NCBI GenBank assembly: GCA_963796275.1
Contig: CAWCKY010000004.1
Span: forward strand, 832,001 to 896,000
Direction of reading: 5' to 3'
DNA length: 64,000 nucleotides
Origin: an uncultured Acidobacteriota bacterium
GTDB taxonomy: Bacteria; Acidobacteriota; Blastocatellia; RBC074
The notes under the pieces were generated by a model. That model was not told where the DNA came from. It searched no databases and saw nothing but the letters and a program-made list of their open reading frames with translations. Made by a program: the position numbers and the translations under genes. Numbering within the stretch: position 1 is the stretch's first letter; every line of letters begins with the position of its first letter. This document shows positions 20,291-38,985 of this stretch, piece after piece.

Positions 20291-20396
20291 TCTGAAGAGA
20301 GAAAGGGGAAGCAAAAAAGACAAACAAAAATGGCCAAATATTTTTGTCTATTTTGTTATACCTTTTTGCTTCCCTTTTCTCTCTTCTTTTCGAGCC

Positions 20397-21503: not shown

Positions 21504-23114
21504 GTGAAAGCATTTACTGAACTTTATACAGCGCTCGACGAAACGACGAAGACCAACGCGAAGACCGAAGCGCTCGCCCGATATCTGCAACATGCTCCGC
21601 CGGAAGATGCGGCTTGGGCGATCTGGTTCCTCAGCGGCCGGCGGCTGAAACTTGTCGTCCCGACTCGCAGATTATGTGAATGGTCAGCCCGCGAAGCGGG
21701 AATCTCTGATTGGCTGTTCGACGAATCGTATCTCGCCGTCGGTGATTTAGCCGAAACCATAGCGCTGCTCTTGCCCGATCCGGCGGAGATCATGGAGATT
21801 CCGCTTCACCAACTCGTAGTTAAACTCGGGCGATGGCGCAAGCTGGGTGAAGCGGAGCAGCGCGAAGAAGTGTTGCGCTACTGGCGACAGCTCGATCGCA
21901 AGCAGCGATTCGTCCTCAATAAAATCATCACCGGCGAATTTCGCGTGGGCGTCTCAGCGCAGATGGTCATCCGCGCTATCGCCCGGCAAAGCGGCATCGA
22001 TCCCGGGGTGATCGCGCACCGGCTGATGGGCAACTGGGAACCGGGGCCAGAATTTTACCGGCAATTAATGCATCCGGATCATCAGGACGCCGATGTGAGC
22101 AAACCATATCCGTTCTTCCTCGCTTCCCCACTCGATGAAGACCCCGAGTCGCTCGGGGATGTTAAAGACTGGTTCGTCGAATGGAAATGGGATGGCATAC
22201 GTTCGCAACTCATTAGACGCAACGGACAGACTTTTCTCTGGTCGCGCGGAGAAGAGCTCATCACCGAACGTTTCCCGGAATTACAGGCGCTCGGCGACTT
22301 CCTGCCTGAAGGCGTCGCCCTCGACGGCGAAATACTCCCATGGAAGGACGATAAACCAATGCCCTTCGGCCAACTGCAACAACGCATCGGGCGCAAAACT
22401 ATCACAAAGAAAATCCTGACCGATGTTCCGGTCCGGATAGTCGCTTATGATCTGCTCGAATTTGCTGGCGAAGATATCCGGCAGAGACCCCTGATAGAAC
22501 GGCGTAATTTGCTGGCCGGGATCGTCAATGCGTTGCCCGACGCACAAATTCAATTGCTTCACCTGTCGCCGGTTGTCGCAGGCGACTCGTGGGAAACGCT
22601 GCGCGGGTTGCGAGCTACCAGCCGCGACCGCAGCGTAGAGGGCCTCATGCTTAAACGTCTCTCATCGACCTATCGAGTCGGGCGCCAGCGTGGCGACTGG
22701 TGGAAATGGAAGATCGAGCCGTACACAATCGACGCCGTCTTGATCTATGCGCAACGCGGGCACGGACGGCGTGCAAGTTTATACACGGACTATACTTTTG
22801 CGGTCTGGGACGAGAGCACTCTCGTACCCTTCGCCAAAGCATATTCCGGTTTGTCCGACCAGGAGATCGACGAAGTGGACCGCTTCATCCGTCAGAACAC
22901 GGTCGAATCGTTCGGTCCCGTGCGCAGCGTCAAGCCAGAACTGGTTTTTGAGCTGGCATTCGAGGGCTTACAACGATCGTCGCGTCATAAATCTGGTATC
23001 GCTACTCGTTTTCCGCGCATTTTGCGATGGCGTAAAGATAAGAAGATCGAAGAAGCCGACACATTAGGGACAATCAAAGCGATGTTGCCGAGCTCGCATC
23101 CCGACAAAAAATAA
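21504..23114 (+). CDS. ATP-dependent DNA ligase
   Basis: Motif I EWKWDGIR, LDGE, YDLLE, EGLMLK, WWKWK, OB-fold with RFPRI. Confidence 0.95.
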   Translation: MKAFTELYTALDETTKTNAKTEALARYLQHAPPEDAAWAIWFLSGRRLKLVVPTRRLCEWSAREAGISDWLFDESYLAVGDLAETIALLLPDPAEIMEIPLHQLVVKLGRWRKLGEAEQREEVLRYWRQLDRKQRFVLNKIITGEFRVGVSAQMVIRAIARQSGIDPGVIAHRLMGNWEPGPEFYRQLMHPDHQDADVSKPYPFFLASPLDEDPESLGDVKDWFVEWKWDGIRSQLIRRNGQTFLWSRGEELITERFPELQALGDFLPEGVALDGEILPWKDDKPMPFGQLQQRIGRKTITKKILTDVPVRIVAYDLLEFAGEDIRQRPLIERRNLLAGIVNALPDAQIQLLHLSPVVAGDSWETLRGLRATSRDRSVEGLMLKRLSSTYRVGRQRGDWWKWKIEPYTIDAVLIYAQRGHGRRASLYTDYTFAVWDESTLVPFAKAYSGLSDQEIDEVDRFIRQNTVESFGPVRSVKPELVFELAFEGLQRSSRHKSGIATRFPRILRWRKDKKIEEADTLGTIKAMLPSSHPDKK

Positions 23115-23122
23115 TTTTCATG

Positions 23123-23156
23123 AATAGGCAAATATTTCTCTGTTTTGCGTCCTTAT
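23123..23156 (+). promoter_or_regulatory. Candidate ECF-sigma promoter or operator, copy 1 (GGCAAA-N15-CGTC)
   Basis: AATAGGCAAATATTTCTCTGTTTTGCGTCCTTAT; 32/34 identical to 31062-31095. Confidence 0.65.
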
Positions 23157-23395
23157 ATGTATGTGAGAGATTTTTACGATACAAATAATGGTTTTCCCGC
23201 TAGTGACCTCAATGGAATACGAGAAATATTGAATACGGAGGAATTTACAACTCTCACAACTAGTAATCAGTGCGCTCCCCACTCTATAGCGCTAGGAGTT
23301 AGGCAATTCTGTGCTAGATCTCACAGTTGAGGATTGGGATAAGAACCAATCGTTTGCGGTTTGATTTAGTAACAGTACAAAGCTGGTATCATGAA

Positions 23396-24787
23396 ATGAG
23401 GAAAATGTCTGGCGAAGGTTATCCCCAATCTCCGGAGCCGACTGAGGCAGAGGTGCGGCAAGTAGTACAGCGGATTTTGAGCAGCAAGCATTTTTCCAAT
23501 GCCCCGACGAAACAAAGGTTTTTGCATTTAATTATCGAAGCATACATTGATGGGCGCGAAGACAAACTGAACGAATATATGATCGGATGCGAGGTGTACG
23601 CTCGCAACGAGACATATAACCCTGCACTCGATCCCATCGTACGCGTCGGAGCTCACGGTCTGCGGAAAAAACTTCAATCTTATTATAAAGATGATGGGAA
23701 AGAAGACGAGCTGATCCTGGAGATCCCAGTCGGAAGTTACATTCCTATTTTCACCACACGCGCTCGGCCTCCTGAATCAATTGAATCTACTCAAGATATT
23801 ATTCCGAAGGTTCCAGCAGTTGAATACGGTGAGAAAAAAGAGATATCTGAGAAATCCGTGAGTAAGTGGATTTCTCTGCTCAGTCTGCTAATAGCCTTTC
23901 TATTGATGACTGTTTTTGCATTAGCTTTTTCCCAGCGAAATTTATGTGGGCACTTCGGAGAGAGTGCTGTTCAGCACGAGAGCCTCAGCATAATAAAACC
24001 TGTCTGGGAAACATTTCTGAAGGATGAGAGTCCACCCATCATCGTCCTAACCAATCCTTCGGTCTTTCGTTTTTCAAATCCCGGCGATCCGGCTCAGCTT
24101 TCCCGATATTCTACGGGATTATCTCCCGCGGAAACCAGATCGATAAACGAGATATTCGGACCAGGGCGTTTCGAAACCGGTTATGGATCGACTCCCAGGC
24201 TCGTGCTCTCTTACGACGAGTATTCAAATTTCGGTGAGACAATCGGGCTCTATCAGATCACCCGGCTTTTCAACAAGATCGGCAAAAATGTCATACTCAA
24301 GCAAAGCCGAAGGCTGACGGTCGAAGATTTGAAAGATCATCATGCAATCCTGATCGGCAGCGGCTGGGTTAATGAATGGATGGGCAACACACCGATCAGA
24401 AAATCCTTCGACCGGGGACCAAGCGCGAGCATCATCAACCAAAACCTTTTTACCGAAGAAGATGGGACCATCACAAACAAATACAGAGCAAAATTTGATG
24501 AGGAGACCGGTCTGCTCATAGAGGATTATGCTGCAATCACAGTAAAACCAGGCATTTCAGAGCGAAAAACAATCATGGTTCTGGCCGGATCGCGTTATGA
24601 GGGAACCCAGGCGGCCGCCGAATATTTAACTGACGAACACCACCTCGCAGTCCTTAACCGGTTGCTGGTGCAGCCGGATGGCAATTTCCCCAAACATTTT
24701 CAGGTTTTGCTTAAAGTCCATGTCGATAATGGCGTCACAACTAATATCGAAACGGTAAAAGTTAGCAGCCTTGAAGATTCTAGGTGA
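23396..24787 (+). CDS. Membrane-anchored putative regulator: N-terminal wHTH-like domain, one TM helix, periplasmic domain
   Basis: VQRILSSKHF...EYMIGCEVYAR...DPIVRV...LRKKLQSYY...EIPVGSYIP (acidobacterial N-terminal domain); TM WISLLSLLIAFLLMTVFALAF. Start uncertain (23327/23396/23405). Confidence 0.75.
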   Translation: MRKMSGEGYPQSPEPTEAEVRQVVQRILSSKHFSNAPTKQRFLHLIIEAYIDGREDKLNEYMIGCEVYARNETYNPALDPIVRVGAHGLRKKLQSYYKDDGKEDELILEIPVGSYIPIFTTRARPPESIESTQDIIPKVPAVEYGEKKEISEKSVSKWISLLSLLIAFLLMTVFALAFSQRNLCGHFGESAVQHESLSIIKPVWETFLKDESPPIIVLTNPSVFRFSNPGDPAQLSRYSTGLSPAETRSINEIFGPGRFETGYGSTPRLVLSYDEYSNFGETIGLYQITRLFNKIGKNVILKQSRRLTVEDLKDHHAILIGSGWVNEWMGNTPIRKSFDRGPSASIINQNLFTEEDGTITNKYRAKFDEETGLLIEDYAAITVKPGISERKTIMVLAGSRYEGTQAAAEYLTDEHHLAVLNRLLVQPDGNFPKHFQVLLKVHVDNGVTTNIETVKVSSLEDSR

Positions 24788-25099
24788 AGTTGTGCAAGCA
24801 CTAAAATTGCTCCAGCATCTTGATTTATCATGCACCGGCGCATATCATTCCTGATCGAACAATCACTTGCACATAGTAAGCAGGGAGATACAAGATTGAA
24901 CGGATAAAGGCTAAGGCCATAAAGGATTGATGAGCTTGGCCAATCCTTTCGCACCCGTCAATATATGGACTCCCACTATCCCGATGGTTCCTTCATCGAG
25001 AAAACGAAATGATCGCAGTGCAACAGAAAACTGTTGTACAGACTCATCTCAAGCCTACTTGTTGATGAGAGCATTAATCGGACCGGACTGAGAAAGAGA

Positions 25100-25756
25100 A
25101 TGAGGCAAGCCAAGTTAGAATCCCTCCCAAGCGCTAAACTCTTTGATCTTTGTGCAACTCGTTTCGAAGATGCTCAATATTGGGAGGAGTTCGTCAGACG
25201 ATATAATCAAAGCCTGACGCGGTGCGTCTATCAAGCCTATCGGCAGTTTACGGGTGAGGATCTTCTGCTTTCTCCGTGGGCTGTGACCGACCTTTTACAG
25301 GAAATCTACCTCAAAATATTACAGGATAACTGCTCGTCGCTCCGGAGCTTCCGCGGAGATGCGGAAATCGAGGCCGAAGTCTATTTGATGCACATCGCCA
25401 CCAGCGTGACGATCGATCGTCTCCGCCGACAGCACAGTATGAAGCGATTCGTCCAGACGCGGTCGATCGAAGCCACTCACTATCTGCATGAAGAACGGAC
25501 TCGGCGAGAGACGGTGGTGAACTCATACACTGACGAGCTGGTCGAACACGAATTGATTAAGATATTGCGTAGCCGTTTCAGAGGTAAAAACAGGGAGCGC
25601 AACATCCTCATCTTCCTGCTCCATTTCCGGGATGGATTTACTGCGCAGGAGATAGCCAGCGCCCACGTCTTCGGACTGAGCCAACATACCATCGCTCATA
25701 TTCTGAATCGGATGAGGGAAGGGATTCGAGAAGTGATGTTTGCCGATATGACATAA
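25100..25756 (+). CDS. ECF-type sigma-70 factor
   Basis: Region 2 WEEFVRRY...DLLQEIYLKI...IATSVTIDRLRR; region 4 IFLLHFRDGFTAQEIA...ILNRMR. Confidence 0.85.
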   Translation: MRQAKLESLPSAKLFDLCATRFEDAQYWEEFVRRYNQSLTRCVYQAYRQFTGEDLLLSPWAVTDLLQEIYLKILQDNCSSLRSFRGDAEIEAEVYLMHIATSVTIDRLRRQHSMKRFVQTRSIEATHYLHEERTRRETVVNSYTDELVEHELIKILRSRFRGKNRERNILIFLLHFRDGFTAQEIASAHVFGLSQHTIAHILNRMREGIREVMFADMT

Positions 25757-25952
25757 AGTCCAAGGATTAAGCCACTTAGGAAACAGAAGGACAAAGTGGC
25801 AAAAAAGACAAAAAGGTGGATTCTTGCTTTTTGTCCTTTCCCGACTCTCGTTACCCACTCTTGGCAATTCACGATCATTGCTCTTCGCCCTGAAAAGGCG
25901 GTGGAGATTAGACGTAGTTACGCTACGCTTCACCCCCGGCTACATTCCACTG

Positions 25953-26120
25953 CGTCTCCGGCGCAAACCCAAACGTTTTGGTGGCTGACAAGCTCAAGAT
26001 CGGGAGGCTAGTGGTTGCGGCTCGCTCCAAGCCGCTCCGTCTGGCGCAAACCCAAACGTTTTGGGTACTGACAAGTTCAATATCGGGGACGTAGTGGCTG
26101 CGGGTCGCTCCACGCCGCTC
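25953..26120. repeat. Diverged direct tandem duplication (85 bp + 83 bp) that includes the 3' end of the M91 gene
   Basis: 25953-26037 versus 26038-26120; both read CGTCT..GGCGCAAACCCAAACGTTTTGG...CTGACAAG.TCAA.ATCGGG...TAGTGG.TGCGG.TCGCTCCA.GCCGCTC. Confidence 0.85.
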
Positions 26121-26907
26121 TCATTTTATTTTCGGTGAATTGTTTCTGATCATATGGCGGAAGTCCGATAGCCTGGCGTTCGTAGTTTCTGACCCCATCG
26201 CTGAATTCAGGATCCATCCTTCCATAGGCGGCATCATCGGCGTGGATCAACTCATGCGCGAGCCAGATTTCGGGGGGTTGTTTCTGCCAGGGTTCATTCG
26301 ATCCGATGCTCGACAAATCGGGATTGTATTTTATGGTTGTGTCCGAGCCCGCACCATTCCCACGTATGGCCCTTTCCATTCCCGATCCATCCCGCCACTT
26401 GAGCATCTTTCCCGGATCCACGGCGGCGCGGTAGTTGTCAGGCCGCGCATCGTTCGCGCGGGAGCCGGGAACGATGGTGACGATCCGGCCGCTCTGTGCA
26501 AGGCTCTGCAGGAGATGCTGACCGATCGGAATAGCGGCGATAGAATCGAGTTGCGATCTCACTTTCTCGACGAATTCTTCTGTGCCTTTGACGATGGTCC
26601 TATGCTGGTATTCGACCGACACCAGATTATCGGCCGGGATATCATCGAGCAGATCTGCGGTCAGAATTTTATCGAGAGCTCCTTTGTCTTCTTGCGGCGC
26701 ATAACCCAGACTCAATACCTCACGCAGGAGATGGCGGCTCTCGGCGGTGGTTCGACGGAGGTCTTCGAGAGAGACAGAAGAAATGATCTTTCGAGCGACT
26801 ATGTCGCGTTCACGCCACGATGCCGCATCGAACTGCCGGACGAGACATTGGCTGCAGAGGCAAGTTGATGGGTGATCCTGATTTGTAGATTCGAAGGGAC
26901 TTTTCAT
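26077..26907 (-). CDS. M91-family (NleD-like) zinc metallopeptidase with N-terminal His/Cys motif
   Basis: PIGQHLLQSL, GAGSDTTIKYNP, LAHELIHA (HExxH), ERQAIGL, TENKMR...RPRY C-terminus; N-terminal HPSTCLCSQC. Confidence 0.78.
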   Translation of the reverse strand: MKSPFESTNQDHPSTCLCSQCLVRQFDAASWRERDIVARKIISSVSLEDLRRTTAESRHLLREVLSLGYAPQEDKGALDKILTADLLDDIPADNLVSVEYQHRTIVKGTEEFVEKVRSQLDSIAAIPIGQHLLQSLAQSGRIVTIVPGSRANDARPDNYRAAVDPGKMLKWRDGSGMERAIRGNGAGSDTTIKYNPDLSSIGSNEPWQKQPPEIWLAHELIHADDAAYGRMDPEFSDGVRNYERQAIGLPPYDQKQFTENKMRAAWSDPQPLRPRY

Positions 26908-26984
26908 AAAGAGAGACTGAGATTAACCACGAATTCAGACAGATGCGCTGATCTTTTAAAACTCATGGTGACTTTGCGCCATAA

Positions 26985-29435
26985 CTATTCGTGTCTCAAA
27001 GTCACCATCGGATCCACTCGAAGTGCGCGCATGGCCGGAATCAGGCATGCCAGCAGAGCCACGCCAGACAATAAGAACGCGACCCCGATAAAAGTCACCG
27101 GGTCAGTCGGCTTTACTTCATACAATTGACCTGCAAGATATCGCGTCAACGCATATGACGCTGACAAGCCGATGCATACTCCGATAAACGTCATCACTAT
27201 CCCTTGCCGGATAACCAGCCTAAGCACATCGCCAAGCTGCGCGCCGAGCGCCAGACGAATGCCGATCTCGTGCTTGCGCTGCGTCACCGCATACGACATC
27301 ACCCCGTAAATCCCCATCATAGCCAAAAGAAGCGCGATGGCAGCGAAGATGGTGAGCAGTAGCGTATAGAAGCGCGGTTGGCCCACGGAAGACCAGAGCA
27401 CTTGCTCCATCGTCCTGACGTCAGCAATAGACAGTTCGGAATCCAATGAATGTATCGCGCGCTTCACCGCCACGTTGTAGCTCATCGGGTTACCGTTCGT
27501 TCGCACCAAAATGGCGGCAAAGCCGTAAGGCCAACGGTGATGCGGCCAATAGACTGTGGGCATCACCTCGCTTTCGATGTCGGAGATTTTGATATCGGCA
27601 GCCACACCGATTATTTCATCCGTCTTCTGTTCCAACCGGCTGATCCTGATCCGGCGCCCCAGTGGGTTCTCGTTCGGGAAGTAGCGCCGCGCCATCGTTT
27701 CATTGATGATAACTACGTTCGCGTCATCCTCTGTGATATCACGCTCTGTGAACTCTCTGCCCATCCGTAGCGGAATGCCCATCGTTCGCAGGAAATTACT
27801 GTTGACCGGGCGAATATGGGCCATCTGTTTGTTCATGTCGGCCGGGGAGTGGAGGCCTTCGATCATAAAGAATGTATAGACGCCCGTCCCGCTAAGGAGG
27901 AGGTGACTGATAGCACTGGCAGACTGCACGCCGGGCAACTCAGATATTCGTTTAATCGCCCCCTCAAAGAATGCGGTCCTCTTTTTCATATCGAGATATG
28001 CGGGTTCCGGTAATATGATGTGCATGGTCAATAAATTTTTGATATTGAACCCCGGATCGACCGCTTGCAGCCGCAGGAAACTCCTGATCATCAAGCCCGC
28101 GCCGATGAGCAGAACGAGCGCGAGCGCGAATTCCGCGACTACAAACAGCCCGCGCCAAGTGTTACTTCGCGCACCCGTCATCGCACTTCTTCCACCCTCT
28201 TTGAGCGCTTCGTTCAGATCGATCTTTGAAGTTTGCCAGGCGGGCACAAGACCGGAGATGACGGCGGCCAACAACGAGACGCAGACTGTGAACACCACCA
28301 CTCTTCCATCAAGGTCTATCTCCGACAGACGCGGAATGTTGGCAGGACCCAATGCCACGAGAAGCTTGACCATGTAAAACGCCAGTAATAGCCCGAGCGC
28401 GCCGCCCCATACCGCTAATAGAATATTCTCGATCAACAACAGACGAATGAGCCGCAGACGCCCTGAGCCCAGCGAAGCGCGGATGGCCATCTCCCTTTCT
28501 CTGGCGGCGCCTTGAGCCAAACGAAGATTGGCGACGTTAGCACAAGCGATCAGGAGAACGAAAAAGACCGCTCCGAGCAAAACCAGTAATTTCGGGCCGA
28601 TATTTCCGATCGCCTGTTTATCCAAAGGTACCACGTTCACCCCCCAACCGGCGTTGAAGGCGGGGTACTGCTGTTCCAGTTGTTTGGCGATAATGTTCAA
28701 TTCTTCACTCGCCTGCTGTAGCGTCACGCCTGCTTTGAGACGCGCCGGCACCCACAAGTATTGCCCCCATTTCGCTCGATAATCTTTGGCCGGATCCAGA
28801 CCCAGCGGTACCCATACATCCGCCGGTTGATTTTGAAAATTGAAGTTTGGCGGCAATACCCCGATCACCGTATGACCCACTCGATCGAGGCGGACCGTCT
28901 TACCCAGTATCGCAGGGTCGCCGCCGAAACGACGCTGCCAGAGGCCATAACTCAGCACTGCGACACGATCACCATGCGATGGCTCTCCTTCCTCCACTTT
29001 ATGCGGCGCATCTTCTTGCCGGGTGAAGGTGCGGCCGAGATATGCTTCGACTCCGAGCAAAGGAAAGAAATTGGCCGTTACTTTGTGGAATCGGACGTGC
29101 TCCGGCTCTCCGGTGCCGGAAATTGTTTTTTGATCCAACGTAAAGATTGCGGCGATCTCCTCGATAACGCGGCTGCTCTTCTGCCAATCGAGGAAATTGT
29201 TGGGCGCCACTCTGGCCCGGTCGCGCCCGCCACCGGGGTTATTCTCAAAGAGCATAACCAGCCGGTCGGGCTCTCGATATGGAAGAGGACGGAGCCGCAC
29301 GGTATTTACGACGCTGAAGATTGCGCTGGTTGCGCCGATTCCTAAAGCCAGGCTGAGCGTGGCCATCGCCGTGAGACCGTAATTTCTGCGTAGCATCCGC
29401 AGGCCGTGACGGATATCTTTCCAGAGAGTCCCCAT
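26985..29435 (-). CDS. ABC transporter permease, ADOP (duplicated MacB/FtsX) family
   Basis: LWKDIRHGLRMLRR, LALGIGA, LIACANVANL, REMAIRASLG, GIYGVMSY, EIGIRLALGA, RVDPMVTLRHE. Confidence 0.93.
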   Translation of the reverse strand: MGTLWKDIRHGLRMLRRNYGLTAMATLSLALGIGATSAIFSVVNTVRLRPLPYREPDRLVMLFENNPGGGRDRARVAPNNFLDWQKSSRVIEEIAAIFTLDQKTISGTGEPEHVRFHKVTANFFPLLGVEAYLGRTFTRQEDAPHKVEEGEPSHGDRVAVLSYGLWQRRFGGDPAILGKTVRLDRVGHTVIGVLPPNFNFQNQPADVWVPLGLDPAKDYRAKWGQYLWVPARLKAGVTLQQASEELNIIAKQLEQQYPAFNAGWGVNVVPLDKQAIGNIGPKLLVLLGAVFFVLLIACANVANLRLAQGAAREREMAIRASLGSGRLRLIRLLLIENILLAVWGGALGLLLAFYMVKLLVALGPANIPRLSEIDLDGRVVVFTVCVSLLAAVISGLVPAWQTSKIDLNEALKEGGRSAMTGARSNTWRGLFVVAEFALALVLLIGAGLMIRSFLRLQAVDPGFNIKNLLTMHIILPEPAYLDMKKRTAFFEGAIKRISELPGVQSASAISHLLLSGTGVYTFFMIEGLHSPADMNKQMAHIRPVNSNFLRTMGIPLRMGREFTERDITEDDANVVIINETMARRYFPNENPLGRRIRISRLEQKTDEIIGVAADIKISDIESEVMPTVYWPHHRWPYGFAAILVRTNGNPMSYNVAVKRAIHSLDSELSIADVRTMEQVLWSSVGQPRFYTLLLTIFAAIALLLAMMGIYGVMSYAVTQRKHEIGIRLALGAQLGDVLRLVIRQGIVMTFIGVCIGLSASYALTRYLAGQLYEVKPTDPVTFIGVAFLLSGVALLACLIPAMRALRVDPMVTLRHE

Positions 29436-29774
29436 TAATCGCCTTTCTTATTTTAATTTCGGCTTTTATCGGATAGAAAGAAAGGGAAATCGCAAAACGG
29501 GCAAAGTATATCGATATATGTAGGGTATTCACAACAAAAAATTTCGTGATTTCGTCTATCTCTCAAGTTCAGCCGTATCACCAAAGCTTCCCCCTATCCA
29601 TCTAAAAGCGATAAGCCCGGGTGAAAAATTCAACACAAAGACGCATTCAGCCGTTGCCGGCCGGGACGCGAGGTATAATTTTCCTCTTCATTTTGCGTTC
29701 TGCGTCTTTGTGTTGAGCAAATCATTCTTTCTGTCTCACTTAATTATGTCCTGAATAGACACAGATGAGACTAA

Positions 29775-30572
29775 TTACTTGAGACCCTCGAACCACTCAG
29801 CCACCCACTGCCAAAACGTCGGGGTTTCCCAAGTTGCCGAACCGAAGAGGCAACAATTGCACTCTGTTCGCCCTCCGGTCCCCGCCACAGGCAGCCCCAG
29901 GCTCTGGCCACCCGCCACGTACCACATCTGCTGGGGTTGTGCACCCACGATGTTGTAAAAGTATTTGCCGTGCTCACCCGTGATCGCCTCCGCCAGGTTA
30001 GTGACCGATACTTCATAATCGCTCCCACTCTGGAAGGTGAAATCCTCAGTCCCGTTGAAGAAACGCAACACGGCGTAGCCGTCTTCCGGAATCTCAACGT
30101 TGAGGCAAGCCTTGACTGCTATATCCGTCGGAGCGTGATCGCACACCTGGCCGGTATTTACATCGGCAAAGCGCACATTGGTGAATGGGTTAGTGGAATA
30201 AAGCTCTCCGTTCTTGAAGTAGATTCTGGCGCGGCATAACATCGGATCAACCTGCAACTCCTCATTCGGATGCAGATCCTTCTCGATATCTACCATCCTG
30301 TCGAATGGGCGGCGAGGATCGCTGGCCGACTGCGGCACATAGCGGCTGAGCGGCTTGCCTTCGGGAAATACCTCCAGACAGATGTCGCCGCTTACTTCGG
30401 CAAAAGTGTGATATTCACGCACGACGACGCCATCTTGTTTGATTATGATGTGCGGTTGGTGGACGTGTTCGGGAGCTTCACCGTCCGTTGATATCATGCC
30501 TACCATCAACCGCGAAGAATATCTGCTGAAAAATGCACAAAGATCTTCAAAACTGAATCGAATCGAATTCAT
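29775..30572 (-). CDS. Hypothetical 265-aa protein, beta-rich, with Cys- and Trp-rich C-terminus
   Basis: AGGAG Shine-Dalgarno upstream of ATG 30572; no family recognised. Confidence 0.75.
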   Translation of the reverse strand: MNSIRFSFEDLCAFFSRYSSRLMVGMISTDGEAPEHVHQPHIIIKQDGVVVREYHTFAEVSGDICLEVFPEGKPLSRYVPQSASDPRRPFDRMVDIEKDLHPNEELQVDPMLCRARIYFKNGELYSTNPFTNVRFADVNTGQVCDHAPTDIAVKACLNVEIPEDGYAVLRFFNGTEDFTFQSGSDYEVSVTNLAEAITGEHGKYFYNIVGAQPQQMWYVAGGQSLGLPVAGTGGRTECNCCLFGSATWETPTFWQWVAEWFEGLK

Positions 30573-31061
30573 GGTTTTCTCCTACAAATTAATTTTGGGC
30601 CAGGTTTAAGTGGCGGCCAGGTTTTGCAACTAGTGCCTCGCGGTCGGTAATCCACCACGGTTCGCACGACAGGAAAAATCCTGAGAAGGGGAAGTACCGA
30701 AGTTATTCCAACCTCGCTATTTCTCAATATTTATCAGTGTTCTCCGTGCTTCTTCCAACCCAAGGCTAGGATCAGAGCTGATCGAGTTGAGGCTTCACGA
30801 CCAGTATTAGGCGAGCAGACGATCTCTGCTCCTAATCTTCATACTGCCCATTTATACCGTCTAGGATGAAAAATCGGATTTTGCGAATTCGGCGGGCATG
30901 CTTTGAGCAAGACCTGATAGGTCTGTGAGTAAAGCATTCAAAACACAGGGTTAAATGAACAAATGGCTATAATGAAGTATCCGTTCTCGGTTCACTCTCC
31001 CAAGGTTATTATGCTCTGATTTAATACCAATCTGATTCTGTAAAAAAAATAATATTTCCCA

Positions 31062-31095
31062 AATAGGCAAATTTTTCTCTCTTTTGCGTCCTTAT
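31062..31095 (+). promoter_or_regulatory. Candidate ECF-sigma promoter or operator, copy 2
   Basis: AATAGGCAAATTTTTCTCTCTTTTGCGTCCTTAT, about 90 bp upstream of the probable CHAT-gene ATG (31184). Confidence 0.65.
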
Positions 31096-31183
31096 GTCTA
31101 TACAGGGATTTTTTTGGGACCGACTCAATTTTTCAAGACGAGAAACTGAGGGTATTGAGGCATTACCAATACGGGAAGAACGC

Positions 31184-34100
31184 ATGAGAGACGATGTCAA
31201 TGGAAAAAACGGAAATAAGGAGAAGGAGAGGGAAACACATCCTGACAGAAACTCCATGGTTGGTTATGTAAGTGGATCCTGTCCCACCAATTTAAGAACT
31301 GTCATTGAGGAACATTGCTTAGACTGTTTGGAATGCCGGACTCAATTGTCCATTCTTTTGCATCTGATCATTTCTGCGCCGGATGCGGAAGAGCATCGAA
31401 AGTTTACCGATCTATTGGCGCTCGGAGAAGAAGCTGCTGCCCGCGCTCGATCGATCATCATCAATGAGCAGAAGCATCCGCCCAGTCTTTCAGGGGGAAA
31501 GTCGTTCCGGCTCCGCCAACCCGCTCTAGCACCGGCGTTGGTCATCATTGTTCTGCTTTGCGGCAGCCTGTTCGGATATTTCATTTTCTCCCGCCAATCT
31601 TCAGAAGAACGCATGCTCACCCGCGTGCGTGATGTTTATCAGAACACTCGTTTGCTTCAAGCGCGTGTGACGGGTGGCTTTTCACATCAAAACTATATAG
31701 TGACCCGCGGCTCCGGCAATATCGCCGGAGTTGATGAAACCCAGCGTATAGCGCTTTTGGCAGAAATAAATCAGGAGGTTCACACCCGACCAAAGGCCGC
31801 TACCCGTCACATTCTTGGCAAACTATTAATGTTGCAGGGAGATTTGGAACCTGCCGAGCAACAATTTCATCTCGCATTGAAGGAAGCCCCGCGCCACGCT
31901 CAACTCAATGCCGATCTGGGCGCGCTCTACTATGAGCGCAGCTTGAAGAAAGAACACGAAGATCGTGAACTACTGGAAAAAGCCGCCGAGTATAGCTCGA
32001 AGGCAGTCGAGCTCGAACCGATGCTCTCTGAATCATGGTTCAATCGAGCGCTCTGTTATGAGCAGATGAATCTTACACATCAGGCGGAGAGCGACTGGGA
32101 GCAGTATCTCGCTCTCGATAGTAGTTCGGCATGGGCAGAAGAGGCTCGCGTACGTCTCGAGAAGCTACGAAACCGGAAAGCACAGATGGAGAAGCAGGAC
32201 CAGAGCATTCCGGAAGAATTCCTGGCGGCTGAGGCAGCCGGCAATGAACCAAAGATGCGCGAGTTTATAACCCGGCAATTCGTCGTCATCCAGAATCTGG
32301 CGATGAATCATATCTTCGATAAGTATCTATCCGCGGCCATTTCCGGAGAGAAGAACCAGGCCGATCAACACTTGCGTGCGCTCAAGCATATTGGACAGTT
32401 GATCAGCGATATCAAAAGGGATCGCTTCGTCAGCGATGCGGTCAATTTTGTGGCGCGCGGCAACTCCGCAGTGAAAAAGGACGTACAGGCAATCCGTCAG
32501 ACCCTCCAACAAGCCAGAGGGGAATACGCGCGCGGTAATATTAGCGCCGCATCGGGGCTATACGAGAAAGCCCATAACGCCGCTGAACTTATTGAAGATC
32601 ATTGTCATGCCGAAATGGCAGCTCTCGGCCTCGCCCGTCCTTACGGTTACGCGGACGAATCTGAGGGAATTGTCTCGCTCAGAAATCGGCTCGTAAGCGA
32701 CAGCGAACGGCGATTTCATCGGCAGATGCACGCCCAGGCGCTCCTTGCGCTGGCTAATGTCGAGGGGGCAGCACAGCAATTATCACTTAACCTTCAACAT
32801 AGCAATCAGTCTGCCGAAATCGCCAAGGAGTTAGGCGATGCCCAAACCGCAGTCAACAGTTTGAGGTTTGTCGCCTTCGCTTACGACAGCATCGGCGATT
32901 ACGATCTTGCATTAAAGAAGCGCTACGAAGCCATCTCGCTGATTCGCGATTTCCCGGCCAGTCACCACATAAATGCTGTGGTTTACGACGGGATGAGTGA
33001 CACGCTCTTCAAAATGGGCAGATATCCAGCGGCGCTGCATTACCAGCGTGAAGCCGTATGGTCGAGCGAGCAATCGGTCAATATACCGTTATCTGTTTAT
33101 ATGACCCAGAGACTCGGGTTGATTTACGGTATGCTGGAAAAGCATGAAATGGCGAGACAGCACCTCGATCAAGCAATTGCACGCGCCGAAACGGTCTCAG
33201 ATAAAATCGCACGTAAACAGCTGCAATTGGATCTTTATACAAACTATGGCGATTTCTACGTAAAACAAAACAGGCCTGGTGATGCAATCACGATTTACCA
33301 ACGCGCTATCGAAAATTTAGTAAAGTCGGGAAGTCGTTTTCACCTCTCGTCTATTCACCAGGGTCTTGCATCGGCATATCTGGCACTGGGGCAGAATGAG
33401 GAAGCCGAGAAACAGCTTCAAACAAGTATCGATTTAATCGAGCAGGCGCGCGGACAGATCGATGACGCGCGTAGCCGAGGCACCTTCCTCGCCAGCCAGC
33501 AGAACATCTATCGTGCGATGGTCACCTTTCAGTTCTTTAAGAAGAACGACCATGCGCGAGCATTCAATTACGCCGAGATCGCCAAGGCTCGCGATCTCCT
33601 CGATACATTGGCAGGTTCACCCGAAATAAATACAAACGACGGCCAGATCAGGTTGGCCGTCACCAGCAGCGCCACCCCTCTCACAATCGAACAGGTGCAG
33701 CGCGCGCTGCCGCTCAACACCCAACTGGTCCAGTATGTCATCGGCAAGGAAAACCTGATGATCTGGCTCGTCAAGCGCGACCGGTTGTTGACAGCAAACG
33801 CCAATGTGAGCGCGGATAAGTTGCGAGGCAAGGTCACGGCTTATCTCGATGAGCTGCGTAAGCGCGGCAATATCGAAGGTCTCAACAGCCAGGCGTCTGA
33901 GTTATATCAATGGCTGATCGCACCGATAAGCAAACACCTCGAACCGGATAGCGAGCTATGCATCGTGCCGGACGGGTTGTTGCAAAATCTGCCGTTCGCC
34001 TCGCTGGTCTCGCCTGAGACGAAACGCTATCTTGTCGAAGACTACTCGCTCGTCACCAATCCGAGTGCGAGCGTCTTCGCGCGGACTCTGGAATTATCCT

Positions 34101-34786
34101 GTGACAAGCAGTTGACCGGGACGGGATCGTTCCTCGGCTTCGCCAATCCGCGCTTCAATCAACAGATTTTCCCCAAACTTAATCCGTTGCCCTCGTCCGA
34201 TGAGGAGATCGCCCGCATTCAATCCCATTACTCCGCGGCGCGTATCCTGAGCCGTGGGCAGGCGACCGAGAGCGCTCTCGTCAATCAAATAGGCAAGTAT
34301 GAGATTGTCCATTTGGCCACGCATTCGTTGAGCGACAAGCAGTCATCGCTACTCTCGACGATCGTGCTGGCGGACGAAAGGGATCGACATAAGGGAGAGC
34401 GATATCCCGGCCGAGCCCTATTCGACGGTGCGCTGCGGGCTCACGAGATATACGGCCTGAAGCCGGAGATGACGCGACTGGTAGTTCTCTCGAGCTGCAG
34501 TTCTGGGCTCGGCGATCAGACGCGCAATGAGGCTATGGGCGGCCTGGCGCAGGCATTTCTGGCGGCCGGCGTCCCGACGGTGGTCGCGAGTTTGTGGGAA
34601 ATCGATGATGAGAGTACGGCGGGGCTGATGGAGAAGCTCCACGCCACTCATCGCATGAAGAGACTTGCCTTCGGCCAATCATTGCGCCAGGCACAGATTT
34701 CGTATCTTCAATCCGCGCCCGTGCGGCGTCGGCATCCTTACTTTTGGGCGACTTTTATCGTCACCGGTAATGGATTGACAACTTAA
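31184..34786 (+). CDS. zf-HC2 anti-sigma / TM / TPR / CHAT (caspase-HetF-like) protease fusion
   Basis: EHCLDCLECR (HxxxCxxC), TM LVIIVLLCGSLFGYFIF, TPR helices (WFNRALCYE), CHAT motifs IVPDGLL.NLPFASL, VHLATH (His), VVLSSC (Cys), GLAQAFLAAG, VASLWEIDD, HPYFWATF. Confidence 0.92.
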   Translation: MRDDVNGKNGNKEKERETHPDRNSMVGYVSGSCPTNLRTVIEEHCLDCLECRTQLSILLHLIISAPDAEEHRKFTDLLALGEEAAARARSIIINEQKHPPSLSGGKSFRLRQPALAPALVIIVLLCGSLFGYFIFSRQSSEERMLTRVRDVYQNTRLLQARVTGGFSHQNYIVTRGSGNIAGVDETQRIALLAEINQEVHTRPKAATRHILGKLLMLQGDLEPAEQQFHLALKEAPRHAQLNADLGALYYERSLKKEHEDRELLEKAAEYSSKAVELEPMLSESWFNRALCYEQMNLTHQAESDWEQYLALDSSSAWAEEARVRLEKLRNRKAQMEKQDQSIPEEFLAAEAAGNEPKMREFITRQFVVIQNLAMNHIFDKYLSAAISGEKNQADQHLRALKHIGQLISDIKRDRFVSDAVNFVARGNSAVKKDVQAIRQTLQQARGEYARGNISAASGLYEKAHNAAELIEDHCHAEMAALGLARPYGYADESEGIVSLRNRLVSDSERRFHRQMHAQALLALANVEGAAQQLSLNLQHSNQSAEIAKELGDAQTAVNSLRFVAFAYDSIGDYDLALKKRYEAISLIRDFPASHHINAVVYDGMSDTLFKMGRYPAALHYQREAVWSSEQSVNIPLSVYMTQRLGLIYGMLEKHEMARQHLDQAIARAETVSDKIARKQLQLDLYTNYGDFYVKQNRPGDAITIYQRAIENLVKSGSRFHLSSIHQGLASAYLALGQNEEAEKQLQTSIDLIEQARGQIDDARSRGTFLASQQNIYRAMVTFQFFKKNDHARAFNYAEIAKARDLLDTLAGSPEINTNDGQIRLAVTSSATPLTIEQVQRALPLNTQLVQYVIGKENLMIWLVKRDRLLTANANVSADKLRGKVTAYLDELRKRGNIEGLNSQASELYQWLIAPISKHLEPDSELCIVPDGLLQNLPFASLVSPETKRYLVEDYSLVTNPSASVFARTLELSCDKQLTGTGSFLGFANPRFNQQIFPKLNPLPSSDEEIARIQSHYSAARILSRGQATESALVNQIGKYEIVHLATHSLSDKQSSLLSTIVLADERDRHKGERYPGRALFDGALRAHEIYGLKPEMTRLVVLSSCSSGLGDQTRNEAMGGLAQAFLAAGVPTVVASLWEIDDESTAGLMEKLHATHRMKRLAFGQSLRQAQISYLQSAPVRRRHPYFWATFIVTGNGLTT

Positions 34787-34929
34787 TCGCTCGCTCGGAG
34801 CGCACAATTCCAGCGTGGCAACCTGTGGTCACCCGCCCGACCAGTGACAATCACGGCCAAGTACCGCAGTCCCTGGCACGCTGGTATTGTACGCTCCGAG
34901 ATCGGCGAATTTTTTCTGAGCACACAGCA

Positions 34930-35355
34930 ATGGGAAAAAATCATAGTGCTCCGCCCTGCTGTGAGTCGACAGTCCATCAGACGGTGGCTCTACCGCAGAA
35001 GCTGGCGCAAATAATATTTGATCAAAAAGACTGGGCTTTTGTGTCACAAGAAACTGCTCCCGTCAGGCGACTATTTATCCGAGAGCGCAGATCACTGGCG
35101 CTCCAATGGGTGCGGCACACCCGCCAACTTGCCACCCGGATCGTCATTCACAACTGCTGCGCATCCCCTATAAATCACCAACGCGCAGTCAATTGGTTTA
35201 AGCTATTCAGCAACTACACGCTCCTCCTGAGTATTTGTATCGTTTTGTTTTTCGTAATTCGATGGGGCAATCCTATCTACGCGACCAAACTGGTGGCCTG
35301 GGCGCTCGATATTGTCGAAAGACTCTATCATCCTCCACACACTTCTGCGGTCTAG
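34930..35355 (+). CDS. Hypothetical protein
   Basis: IFDQKDWAFV...LFIRERRSLALQWV resembles small acidobacterial conserved proteins. Start uncertain (34825 or 34930). Confidence 0.55.
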   Translation: MGKNHSAPPCCESTVHQTVALPQKLAQIIFDQKDWAFVSQETAPVRRLFIRERRSLALQWVRHTRQLATRIVIHNCCASPINHQRAVNWFKLFSNYTLLLSICIVLFFVIRWGNPIYATKLVAWALDIVERLYHPPHTSAV

Positions 35356-35395
35356 GTGACATCCGATCAACATCAATAAAACCGGGATAAATTCG

Positions 35396-35893
35396 ATGGG
35401 AGAAAACGCAAACTTTATGATTAAGCATGCCGAGATTGCACTGGCGATAGAGGAGATCGAACGGGAATTTCTCGATGTGATACAGGAAGACATCGCCCGC
35501 TTGATCTTTCTGGCATCAACCCGAGACTATCAGGCCGACCGATACCAGCACGATGTCCTCGCATATCTCTACTCTGAGGATATGGCCGACGAGGCCTTGG
35601 CTGCCTGCCATCGCAAAGTTTTCGATCGCGTTACGATCACGCCGCTTCCCGAACTCGTCTGGCAGCTGGATAGTTATCTCGTTTCGGTCATCATGCCGCA
35701 GAGCGAGGTCATTCAGCTTTGGAAGAAACATACTCCATATCACATATTGCCTCCGAGAGACTGCGATCCTCTAGCCGCGGAGATCTTTTTATCGAATGTT
35801 AAAGTGGCACTGACGATTTTGGAGGAGCGCAGCAAAAATGAGGTGCATTCCAAGCATGACCCGATCTTATCAAAAATAGCAGATTTAGCCTGA
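35396..35893 (+). CDS. Hypothetical protein
   Basis: RLIFLASTRDY..DRY.HD.LA...ALAACHRKVF; co-oriented downstream of the CHAT gene. Confidence 0.7.
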   Translation: MGENANFMIKHAEIALAIEEIEREFLDVIQEDIARLIFLASTRDYQADRYQHDVLAYLYSEDMADEALAACHRKVFDRVTITPLPELVWQLDSYLVSVIMPQSEVIQLWKKHTPYHILPPRDCDPLAAEIFLSNVKVALTILEERSKNEVHSKHDPILSKIADLA

Positions 35894-36069
35894 ATATAAA
35901 CTAAAACAGCCACAGAGACTCACCTGAGATTTCATATATAAGATATGAGATCTAAGTAGTGTCTATGCGGCTGGATAAAAATCGAAAACGCGATCCAGAC
36001 GGATGCCTGACGCCAAGGAGATAGAGACCCCTCTTCTCCTTGGCGTCTTCGCATCTCCGCTTCAAATCA

Positions 36070-38985
36070 TTACGGACCCGTGCATAAGAAGGTCCTAAAT
36101 GACAACGAGAATGCGCGCACGTTGCCAGTATCGAGCGCTGCGACATCGGAGACGCTCAGCGTCCATGTGCCGTTCCCCATCTTACCGTCGAAAGCCGATA
36201 GCGGGTTGGCCGGTTTAAACGTCCCGGTGAAGGGTGCGTTAAGAAACGTGATGTTCTGGATAAAGAACGGTGCGCTATCATCTAGCACCGAATTACAAAA
36301 GTTATTACCATCGTTAGTGATGCCGCCCGGCCGGTTCACCAGCGTGACGGTCGTACCATCCGGCGAGGTCAGTGTGATCACGAGGTCGCTCACCCACTGG
36401 TGGTCGAGCCCGACCGTTGTCGCGCCGCTGGCGCTCGAGCAACTGCTGCCGTCAAAACTGAATTTGAGGCCACTGACCGGGCCTGTCAGCCCGCTCACCA
36501 TAATCGGAATATTGACTCCCGTGGGGATGCCATCGGGAATCGGCACCGGCGGTCCGGTATAACTGATGACTGTGTCGGGAGCCGGCGTTCCCGTCTGAAT
36601 TCTGAAGGTGGAGACCTGCGGCCCGACGGGGCTGTTTGCGTAATTGACCGTCAATGTGAATTCGATCACCTGGCCGCAACCTGCCGCGCTGTCGATGTTG
36701 AAAGTGAACGGCACCGCATTGACGGCACTCTGGCCATTTGAACCGATGATCGGATAGCTGGAAGTGGCCGTGACGATCGTTACGCCCGGAGTTGTGGTAG
36801 TAAGCGTCCCGCTGATGCCGAGCGCCGTGGCGCCACCGATATTGGTCAACTGAGCCGAGACCGTGCCACCTTCACCGGGCTCGAAACTGCCATCGCCATC
36901 ACCAACATCCGCTGTTGCCACCGTGCCGAGTTGGAGCAAAGGCGAAGGAGCCGCGCCGATCTGGAGCAGCGCCCCGAAAGCGTCAATGATTCCGGTTCCG
37001 GAATCGCGGTCACGACCGCTCGCTTCAATGTCGATCGCGGTCTGCATGAGCGCCTGCCGGATCCTATTCTGCGTCGCCCTCGGTCTGGCCGATTTCAGCA
37101 ACGCGGCGACCGCAGCGGCGTGTGGCGCAGCGGCCGATGTGCCGAAGAACGGCTGAAAAAAGGGAACGCTGGTCGACACACCGTCTACCGCTGTCAGGTC
37201 GGGCTTTTTGCGCACCTCTCCGCCATTGTTGCTGAAAAGGAGGCTGCCCGGCGTGATCGGGGTGCCGTCGGATTTGTAGAAAACGCGGCGGAAACCGTCG
37301 GAACTGAACAATTCCACCGGATTGGAAGGGCCGCCGGTAAAGGTCCCGGCTCCCGCGACCGAGGCATCGATCGCCGCGACGCCGAACGCCCCGGCGACAG
37401 AGTTGTGGCCGTGAGTCGATCCGGGAGTTGCGATCCCCAACTGGCCGCCGAAATTGTTCAAATGCAGCGCGCGCCGCTCCGCCCCGTCCGCTTTGAAAAT
37501 CAGGATGCGATCGTTTGCGAGAGCGCCGGCTGTGAATTCGAGGGGGTCGTCATCGCCGTCCTGAATGCTGGTCGACGCATCGAACACCGTGGTCAGCGTG
37601 TTATCCATGATGATGAGGTCATAGTCGTTGGCCGAAGCACCCGCCGGATCCGACCACCATAACCCGAGAATAAATCCAGAATTGGACTCAACGCGGTTTG
37701 CAATCGCGCCGTTGCCGAAATCATGGAGCGTACCGCCGGGAAGTAATGGGAGCGTGGTCCGTGAATTCTTGAAATCACCCTCCCAAACGCTGGAGGTCCC
37801 GTCGTTGAAATTGCCGTCATTGCCGGCCGAAGAAAAATAAAGCGCTCCGTCCGCAACCACCTCCTCGACCGCAGTTGAAATGATGTCGTCGTGGAAGGGC
37901 GATTCGACGTTGTAAATAACGTCGTCGACGATGATGTCGCAGCCCGCAGCGCGCAGTGCGCGAATATTATCGGCGAAACTGTTGACGCCATTGAAAGCGG
38001 TGGCGAAGAAGAGCTTGGCGCCGGGGGCCAGGTCGTAAATGATCTCGAGCATCGCCGTACCCTCACCGCCACCCGGAGGGCCCTCCTGTCCGGGCAACAC
38101 CGTGACATCAGACGGAAGATCGCCTGAAGCAAACGACTGCGGCATGAAGTCGACGCTGTCCGAGAGGACGCCGATCTTGACGCCCGCACCGTTGACGCCG
38201 AAGAAATTACGTCCAGCCAGTGCGCCGAGAGCCGTATCGCCCTCTGAAATGACGTTACCGGTATTTGCCCGCGGAATGTCCTGCGCGCGGCGCGCGCCCG
38301 CTTTCGCAAGAGCCGCTGTGATCTGCGTACGGACGTTCATCGCCCGTTGATCGAAATTGAGCCGTGACCCGGTTTGCAGGAACGGGTTTGTTTTAACGGG
38401 CAGCGTCGCAGGAGCTTTGCCGGCCATGCGGGTGTTGGCGATTTGCCAATGAGTCCTCGCTTGTTCAGCCGACTTGATCGATATGACTTCGGAATTTTCC
38501 GCCAGTGGCGAAATAGCTTCCCACGGCAGCCAGGCTCGGACTTCCTTTTCCGAGGCGCTGGTAATTTGTCCGCCAAACTTCTGGATCATCATCAGAAACG
38601 GCTTGTCGACTCTAGCTCTGATATTAAGGTGCATACGACCGCGGGCATCGATATTTTTTGTCGTGGCGGCCGCCGAGCGTAATGTCCTGACTTCACCGCG
38701 CGCGGTCATCATCTCACCGCGTTGCGATTTCATCGCGTACCGAAGATTCGAAGCGATCTTCTTTTGTGCCGGCGTGAGCGAGTTTTTCTCGGCAAGCAGG
38801 GCACTAATCTGAGCTTGCGCGGCAGCGCTCAGTGGCAACTCACCAGTTGCCGATCCGCCAGGCTGTTGTATCGTACCTCGCTGCGCGCTTGCGCCGCGAA
38901 ATGATACCGGGATCATTAAACAGCTGGCCACGAGAGCAAGTAAAACCACTATTGTTGAACTGGATCTCACGTATCGTTTTATCAT
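36070..38985 (-). CDS. Secreted subtilisin-clan serine protease (S8/S53-like, Asp-Glu-Ser) with C-terminal proprotein-convertase P domain
   Basis: Signal peptide and prodomain; IGVLSDS, GEGTAM, SSAGN, KPDL, GTSAAAPH; P domain HQWVSDLVITLTSPDGT...NGTWTLSVSD; AGGAGG Shine-Dalgarno. Confidence 0.9.
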   Translation of the reverse strand: MIKRYVRSSSTIVVLLALVASCLMIPVSFRGASAQRGTIQQPGGSATGELPLSAAAQAQISALLAEKNSLTPAQKKIASNLRYAMKSQRGEMMTARGEVRTLRSAAATTKNIDARGRMHLNIRARVDKPFLMMIQKFGGQITSASEKEVRAWLPWEAISPLAENSEVISIKSAEQARTHWQIANTRMAGKAPATLPVKTNPFLQTGSRLNFDQRAMNVRTQITAALAKAGARRAQDIPRANTGNVISEGDTALGALAGRNFFGVNGAGVKIGVLSDSVDFMPQSFASGDLPSDVTVLPGQEGPPGGGEGTAMLEIIYDLAPGAKLFFATAFNGVNSFADNIRALRAAGCDIIVDDVIYNVESPFHDDIISTAVEEVVADGALYFSSAGNDGNFNDGTSSVWEGDFKNSRTTLPLLPGGTLHDFGNGAIANRVESNSGFILGLWWSDPAGASANDYDLIIMDNTLTTVFDASTSIQDGDDDPLEFTAGALANDRILIFKADGAERRALHLNNFGGQLGIATPGSTHGHNSVAGAFGVAAIDASVAGAGTFTGGPSNPVELFSSDGFRRVFYKSDGTPITPGSLLFSNNGGEVRKKPDLTAVDGVSTSVPFFQPFFGTSAAAPHAAAVAALLKSARPRATQNRIRQALMQTAIDIEASGRDRDSGTGIIDAFGALLQIGAAPSPLLQLGTVATADVGDGDGSFEPGEGGTVSAQLTNIGGATALGISGTLTTTTPGVTIVTATSSYPIIGSNGQSAVNAVPFTFNIDSAAGCGQVIEFTLTVNYANSPVGPQVSTFRIQTGTPAPDTVISYTGPPVPIPDGIPTGVNIPIMVSGLTGPVSGLKFSFDGSSCSSASGATTVGLDHQWVSDLVITLTSPDGTTVTLVNRPGGITNDGNNFCNSVLDDSAPFFIQNITFLNAPFTGTFKPANPLSAFDGKMGNGTWTLSVSDVAALDTGNVRAFSLSFRTFLCTGP

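Follow-up and report, generated by a model that had tools for sequence, protein, structure and literature searches.

On a 64,000-nucleotide stretch of DNA from an uncultured member of the Acidobacteriota (Blastocatellia; RBC074; contig CAWCKY010000004.1, positions 832,001–896,000 of the forward strand), hereafter called the window, six genes make up what gene order across genomes indicates is a conserved module of soil Blastocatellia. They encode a sigma factor of the extracytoplasmic function (ECF) type, a membrane-anchored anti-sigma protein ending in a CHAT protease domain, a membrane protein resembling a winged helix-turn-helix (wHTH) regulator, an ADOP permease, an M91 peptidase and a protein here called U, an undescribed dedicated partner which is what is new here. 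The anti-sigma protein resembles DdvA of Myxococcus, which combines a zinc anti-sigma (ZAS) domain, a transmembrane (TM) helix, TPRs and a CHAT domain and has a solved structure (PDB 8ROT, 8RW5, 8RLZ; PMC11506125). We give an even chance to the reading in which the module is a DdvA-like anti-sigma switch, with the tail of U as the likely ligand of the TPRs and proteolysis freeing the sigma factor for promoters of the form GGCAAA-N15-CGTCYT.

Composition of the module

An initial annotation of this DNA had placed nine open reading frames (ORFs) between positions 23123 and 38985 and read them as one 16-kb protease-gated signalling island. All nine ORFs are found in place, and profile searches confirm the CHAT/TPR, M91 and subtilase domains (Pfam) as well as the ADOP permease (TIGR03434). 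The island as a whole is not supported. The comparison of gene neighbourhoods in other genomes that was suggested along with it has been run, and the six core genes recur together in three loci (L002, L003 and L113) and, with the end gene cut off, in two more (L097 and L107). The subtilase occurs in 0/75 loci, which rules it out as a member, and a pair of 176- and 165-aa (amino acid) ORFs adjoins the module in 1/75. These loci comprise 17 genome loci found by way of U, of which 17 contain CHAT, 15 M91, 4 the sigma factor, 3 ADOP, 2 the wHTH gene, 1 the ORF pair and 0 the subtilase, and 58 mostly short metagenome loci (CHAT 33, M91 19, sigma 9, ADOP 29, wHTH 8, ORF pair 0, subtilase 0). The loci are kin, and counts over them are not independent; most relatives come from Blastocatellia or Acidobacteriota.

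In the soil clade, the wHTH and anti-sigma genes occupy one strand and U, ADOP and M91 the other, with the sigma gene facing M91. The wHTH gene directly follows the anti-sigma gene in relatives. The window deviates from this order, as its wHTH gene (23327..24787, plus strand; likely start 23396 or 23405) has moved to the front of the sigma gene (25034..25756, plus strand; likely ATG 25100) and has its own promoter copy. Behind these lie, on the minus strand, M91 (26077..26907), ADOP (26985..29435) and U (29775..30572), followed on the plus strand by the anti-sigma gene (31094..34786). A different arrangement is seen in L004, where sigma, anti-sigma, U and M91 all have the same strand. The genome of the window has a second cassette (C4:476569-488272) with ADOP, U, anti-sigma and promoter and no M91; the sigma factor of this cassette is a different, truncated protein of 178 aa, apparently without region 4. 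There is also a third fused anti-sigma (C1:218143), which has its own sigma factor and two distant U-like genes.

The ADOP permease, of the MacB/FtsX type, scores 988.8 bits against TIGR03434 (cut-off 622.3). Judged by best matches, it is a dedicated orthologue of the module, as 21/21 module permeases pick the two cassette ADOPs of this genome first among its 184 ADOP-like ORFs; the ADOP of L014 does not pick them first. This bears on the explanation that the cluster is an accident of abundant paralogue families, the genome having 41 CHAT matches and 11 wHTH paralogues besides its 184 ADOP-like ORFs. Such an explanation holds for the subtilase, but for the six core genes it is refuted by their recurrence in L002, L003, L097, L107 and L113 and by the dedicated ADOP, and we regard it as highly improbable.

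The M91 peptidase (PF14891, E 2.4e-24) has no signal peptide; its HELIH (HExxH) and a downstream YERQA are conserved, and it fills what looks like an exchangeable second-protease slot behind U. For the wHTH protein, no Pfam, NCBIfam or PDB sequence match was obtained, and no Foldseek match at E 1e-3 or better. However, a confident structure model of helices plus a hairpin, with a topology that fits an OmpR-type wHTH before one TM helix as in ToxR/CadC-like regulators, and the presence of PF00486 in 22% of one Atlas cluster keep the original wHTH label plausible for a predicted wHTH-TM-periplasmic one-component regulator. Its periplasmic domain has weak BcsB likeness only (E 3e-3).

The anti-sigma protein and its probable sigma partner

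The CHAT domain of the anti-sigma protein (PF12770, E 3.5e-63) is accompanied by TPRs in Pfam, and a single TM helix lies at about 148-166. The intact His/Cys dyad that had been reported stands, as His1077 and Cys1135 are invariant in 23/23 aligned relatives. The zf-HC2 label needs more care. Pfam zf-HC2 gives no match on the window protein itself, but it matches 13/18 relatives, the zinc ligands H49/H74/C78/C81 are invariant in 18/18, and the family profile of the ZAS domain matches ChrR, 3hug, DdvA-Nt and RsiW. By these alignments, the zinc anti-sigma domain is real although missed by Pfam in the window protein. The sole PDB match of the CHAT profile at E 0.01 is DdvA, with the dyad aligned, and the profile of the whole protein matches the linker/scaffold of DdvA (E 1.1e-14; profile 158-343 aligned to DdvA 99-286). 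The profile of the TPR array matches NprR, RapJ and RapH. Genome-wide, many exported TPR-CHAT genes adjoin separate ECF sigma and anti-sigma-like genes, which amounts to a split form.

The ECF label of the sigma factor holds with a reservation: its family profile matches sigma-E and SigH, but the protein is divergent and scores just below the cut-offs of Sigma70_r2 (20.6 vs 24 bits) and TIGR02937 (40.9 vs 42.9). Against NF041236 it gives E 7e-6, far under the cut-off. The distance between sigma and anti-sigma genes, remarked upon as unusual in the initial annotation, is real, at 5.3 kb instead of 5.4 kb, but it is not general. The sigma gene lies directly upstream of a fused anti-sigma in L004, L046, L048 and L049 and of a split anti-sigma domain (ASD) plus CHAT pair in L052, L055 and L056; the gap is therefore best explained by rearrangement of a sigma/anti-sigma operon of the ordinary kind. 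Among 20 further sigma-homologue regions, the sigma gene directly precedes an anti-sigma gene in 6 and is divergent from an exported TPR-CHAT gene in 2, while module genes lie further off in 3. Gene order in other genomes thus argues that the two proteins are very probably cognate, as had been proposed.

The shared, probable promoter element and its targets

The upstream element shared by two of the genes has the form GGCAAA-N15-CGTCYT with an AT-rich tract upstream. It had been called near-identical, which is true of the boxes, identical in both copies, whereas the copies as a whole (23106-23162 and 31045-31101) have 81% identity over 57 nucleotides (nt). Copy 1 (23127..23156, plus strand; GGCAAA-N15-CGTCCTTAT) would drive the wHTH gene and perhaps also the sigma gene behind it. 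Copy 2 (31066..31095, plus strand) has a conserved position before the anti-sigma gene, the likely start of which is ATG 31184 because the -10 box overlaps 31094.

The element is far beyond chance: in 9.46 Mb, it is found in 3 places with at most 2 mismatches, and the next best place has 7. With a matrix derived from four training sites, all outside the window, the top four sites of the genome score 30.8-32.4 bits (one of the four belongs to the training set) and the next scores 23.4; the number of sites reaching 22 bits on three contigs is 5, compared with 0-1 in eight column shuffles. The motif lies on the anti-sigma strand in 29/35 soil-clade loci with enough flank and on the other strand in 0/35, with constant boxes and a variable spacer across loci. 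The exact pattern occurs in 6/61 genomes, all 6 among the 18 with the sigma family and 0 among the other 43, and a reversed-pattern control over the genomes gives 3 hits. Single pattern sites in G014 and G025 have no AT tract and may be due to chance. Scans with other spacer lengths give background only. Altogether, the element looks like an ECF promoter, in line with the regulatory role first suggested for it, and we infer that it is probably the promoter of this sigma factor.

Of the four sites in this genome, two lie before anti-sigma genes, one before the wHTH gene and one before a sigma-54-type activator. The last of these sites (C6:876362-885696) stands before the activator, a LuxR-type response regulator, an ECF sigma and a pair of similar FG-GAP proteins, of which one was scanned. 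In G002, the motif is found before two sigma-like ORFs. The motif was not found within 450 nt before U, ADOP, M91, S8 or sigma genes, the one exception being a site ~600 nt before sigma in L114. The suggestion that the three opposite-strand genes are sigma-induced effectors is not supported, as no promoter motif was found before U, ADOP or M91; nor do the targets of the four sites support a conflict regulon. There is no convincing PADLOC match among the 8 proteins scanned. The output of the switch appears to be a small regulatory cascade consisting of the sensor itself, the wHTH protein, other sigma factors and the sigma-54-type activator, and not a defence island.

Protein U and its neighbours

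U is a beta-rich protein of 265 aa that has no signal peptide in the window. A word search gives 195 homologues and profiles give 51 clusters; matches are present in 113/301 genomes of the class (112/300 without G205). H38, G122, Y186 and C238 are invariant in 69/69 aligned members. The structure model is confident (predicted local distance difference test, pLDDT, 85; predicted template modelling score, pTM, 0.84) and contains a low-confidence loop (pLDDT <50), which is followed by a short hydrophobic tail. Foldseek returned no match at E 1e-3 or better, the ESM Atlas no usable match, and VIA-align a best Z of 3.3 over 82 residues with no gasdermin among the matches listed, which neither proves that the fold is new nor excludes a gasdermin fold. 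A literature search, incomplete and with supplements outside its scope, gave no description of this acidobacterial module or of U.

To describe the neighbourhood of U, 40 loci were chosen from weaker U matches. CHAT lies within two genes in 26/40. In 11 further loci, all of family f9, the start of U resembles a signal peptide and the gene that U faces encodes ZAS-TM-TPR with no CHAT; in one of these loci the receptor gene is in two pieces. Only 2/40 loci have neither CHAT nor a CHAT-less receptor, and 1/40 has no called U gene, so that in 37/40 U lies beside either a CHAT gene or an anti-sigma/TPR gene lacking CHAT. Since U stays beside the receptor and has an export-type start when CHAT is absent, it follows the receptor part of the anti-sigma protein. 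The f9 genomes (L190-L200) hold such pairs in multiple copies, with up to 9 U matches per genome, and most of their CHAT-less receptors end in a motif like NCLLS-x-x-P-x-x-C. Two proteins behind CHAT in L052 and L055 looked U-like by eye, failed a profile comparison (probability 1-3%) and are not counted.

The class of the protease beside U varies. While it is M91 in the clade of the window, the 23 neighbours scanned (of 34 listed) include 7 with S8 and 1 with C14, and C39 and S8 adjoin U in L083 and L085. In L083 (G019:C137), sigma, anti-sigma, a U-like gene, a C39-like protease, a second U and M91 follow one another as two partner/protease pairs in tandem. The exchangeable protease raises the question whether U and its neighbour are a cytoplasmic effector pair in the manner of gasdermins, the sigma switch merely travelling along; the protease would cut the loop, the C-terminal peptide would drop off and U would become active. 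The layout of U, ~265 aa long with a loop of low confidence and then a short hydrophobic tail, is that described for bacterial gasdermins (bGSDM; bioRxiv 2021.06.07.447441), the absence of signal peptides from both U and M91 suits a cytoplasmic site, and the protease classes just listed, with M91 in 15/17 genome loci, fit as well. However, fold searches returned no match for U, an adjoining protease is missing beside many U genes (including that of the second cassette of this genome), an exported U next to receptors that lack CHAT is at odds with this explanation, and no sigma promoter motif precedes U. We consider this explanation unlikely.

The hypervariable loop

The loop of U (29844..29879, minus strand) spans residues 232-243 around the invariant Cys238, and 120 distinct variants of it are present among 121 sequences. 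In the 51 closest pairs, loop identity is 47%, whereas no other 10-residue window of the body of U falls below 77%. Nonsynonymous (pN) and synonymous (pS) differences were determined on 39 DNA copies, from which 5 pairs had a body pS of 0.10-0.15. In these close pairs, loop pN is 0.45 and loop pS 0.47, compared with a body pS of 0.14 and a body pN of 0.04; the loop around Cys238 thus changes ~3x faster than the silent sites of the gene. An origin in a diversity-generating retroelement was rejected, as all bases vary, third positions including A/G, and the genome has no template copy. The reverse transcriptase matches of the genome lie far from both U genes.

Two explanations other than a signal peptide can be given for this loop. 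In the first, it serves as bait for foreign proteases of phages or competitors; a cut would expose the Cys-bearing tail, and the sensor would guard U. Fast change of the loop with no matching change in the sensor suits such outside pressure, as does the phage protection reported for the DdvA regulon (PMC11506125). The loop is nearly constant, however, in one related clade (L005-L013, L015-L017), no PADLOC system was detected among the 8 proteins scanned, and the targets of the motif are regulators, which makes a bait rather improbable. Still somewhat less probable is that U is a constant co-receptor, or an enzyme with a His/Tyr/Cys site, whose loop is merely unconstrained while the signal is something else. 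The residues invariant in 69/69 members and the loop pLDDT <50 are as this would predict, but the roughly threefold lead of the loop over the silent sites of its own gene in close pairs speaks against it, as does its low identity relative to every other stretch of the protein.

Proposed mechanism

We return to U as the ligand. What favours this most is the situation in loci without CHAT, where U still accompanies the receptor and is exported. In this mechanism, the anti-sigma protein would hold the nearby ECF sigma factor through its zinc domain. U, likely by its cysteine-centred variable tail, would bind the periplasmic TPR array; an action of U on this sensor, be it as ligand or as pro-ligand, falls just short of an even chance in our estimate. 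CHAT self-cleavage followed by RseP-type cleavage would then free the sigma factor, as proposed for DdvA, a step for and against which the arguments seem balanced. The freed sigma factor would amplify the sensor and start the small regulator cascade. The main gap of the mechanism is the route by which U without a signal peptide reaches the periplasm: this may be ADOP with M91 in this clade, or lysis. That U is the ligand and that, in this clade, M91 trims it and ADOP exports it or its peptide is doubtful as a combined claim.

Several observations weigh against the mechanism. Neither U nor M91 has a signal peptide here, whereas the TPR-CHAT part should be periplasmic, and ADOP is missing from most co-oriented CHAT-U-M91 loci. 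No module gene is present in 9/20 sigma-homologue regions (several of them at contig ends), and G033 carries CHAT-U-M91, yet gives no sigma match with this query. Among 13 pairs, the loop and the sensor show no covariation (best r 0.21, p 0.09), nor does the sensor contain a hypervariable patch corresponding to the loop. Moreover, loop pS (0.47) is raised as much as loop pN; therefore, recombination or multi-base changes, and not selection alone, may explain the variation. Lastly, dyad mutants of DdvA are without phenotype, and its trigger signal is not known, according to the structure paper (PMC11506125).

A broader reading, which we find rather speculative, is widespread peptide-barcode recognition in Blastocatellia: U would be a folded pro-signal, and its Cys-centred tail would mark identity allele by allele. 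An interchangeable protease would mature the tag, Sec or an ADOP permease would export it, and a caspase-fold anti-sigma would read it. If this holds, DdvA-type sensors would gain the class of ligand they lack, and an ADOP permease a first cargo. For the trigger of DdvA-type periplasmic CHAT anti-sigmas the module offers a concrete candidate, U, and with a predicted promoter available for a reporter the ligand question becomes testable by reconstitution. The module also links one of the genome's ~184 ADOP permeases with a specific pathway. Should U be an effector instead, it would still be a new protease-linked fold, found in more than one third of the Blastocatellia genomes searched.

Neighbouring genes and repeats

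Behind the anti-sigma gene lie the two accessory ORFs of 176 and 165 aa (34825..35893, plus strand). The one other genome in which this pair adjoins the module also has a fused form: in L014 (G001:C166), sigma, promoter, a 235-aa ZAS-TM fragment, the pair and a fused 346-aa version of the pair lie ahead of the full anti-sigma, with a further 377-aa fragment downstream. The secreted subtilase (36070..38985, minus strand), with S8 and P-proprotein domains (Pfam), is a neighbour outside the module and gives no match to the S8 proteins adjoining distant U genes.

Two tandem 81-nt copies, 84% identical, are present at 25957-26120, the second overlapping the last codons of M91. The genome has no further copy, and the repeat looks like a local duplication of the 3' end of M91. 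Long inverted repeats with 27-nt and 45-nt arms, each a single copy, follow the anti-sigma gene (34794-34900) and a myo-inositol oxygenase gene (20294-20386). The latter gene, in a bacterium, lies at 19448-20290 (PF05153, E 4e-113).

Comparison with known systems

Type III-E Craspase (Csx29/Csx30/CASP-sigma; PMC10028731) likewise ties a CHAT protease to sigma release, and the score of the sigma factor with NF041236, far under the cut-off as it is, counts among the similarities. It is, however, a cytoplasmic, RNA-triggered TPR-CHAT protein bound to Cas7-11 with a separate anti-sigma, Csx30, whereas a membrane-anchored fusion is found here, with no cas gene among the ORFs scanned. Bacterial gasdermins share with U a similar size, a cleavable loop before a short C-terminal peptide and neighbouring proteases of several classes, but the invariant Cys of U is C-terminal and no structural match was returned for U (bioRxiv 2021.06.07.447441).

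Rap and NprR are peptide-sensing TPR receptors, and agr-type systems use Cys peptides. The likeness to the module consists in the profile matches of the TPR array and in a variable peptide around a fixed Cys. In contrast to these systems, the receptor here is a predicted periplasmic anti-sigma, the U precursor has a 225-aa folded body, and no AgrB-like gene was seen.

For other groups, PMC8999054 and PMC8195603 mention CHAT or caspase genes in the vicinity of ECF sigmas. U is not described in the available text of these papers or of PMC7826278, in the main text of which 'CHAT' is absent.

DdvA/DdvS is the closest system and a published precedent for a trans-envelope CHAT anti-sigma, so that the novelty first claimed for this design falls away. 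Because CHAT self-cleavage followed by RseP is already proposed for DdvA (PMC11506125), the mechanism of the initial annotation equals a published hypothesis, and protease gating of sigma release is a proposal for both proteins. A dimer with an incomplete active site and RseP-dependent turnover are further marks of the DdvA type, and the same paper states that validation of self-cleavage must wait until the signal has been identified. Shared with the module are the order ZAS-TM-linker-TPR-CHAT, the His/Cys dyad, a cognate ECF sigma (very probably so here) and an n16 promoter ending in CGT (PMC11506125, PMC6061681), the DdvS promoter being GTAA-n16-CGT and the one here GCAA-n16-CGT, with the same geometry (PMC6061681). 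The locus order ddvS, ddvA, unknown protein, C25 peptidase (PMC11506125) resembles the one here too, as an unknown protein, U in the window, and a second peptidase follow in both cases, C25 in Myxococcus and M91 in the window. On the other hand, DdvA has 991 aa and zinc ligands CHCC, compared with 1230 aa and HHCC here. The displaced sigma gene, the -35 box GGCAAA and the extra wHTH and ADOP genes are further differences. DdvS-type promoters drive CRISPR-Cas and CBASS genes, none of which lies behind any of the four motif sites here. The switch itself is thus already known in DdvA-like form; what is added here is the six-gene module with its predicted promoter, together with the rapidly changing loop around the Cys of U.

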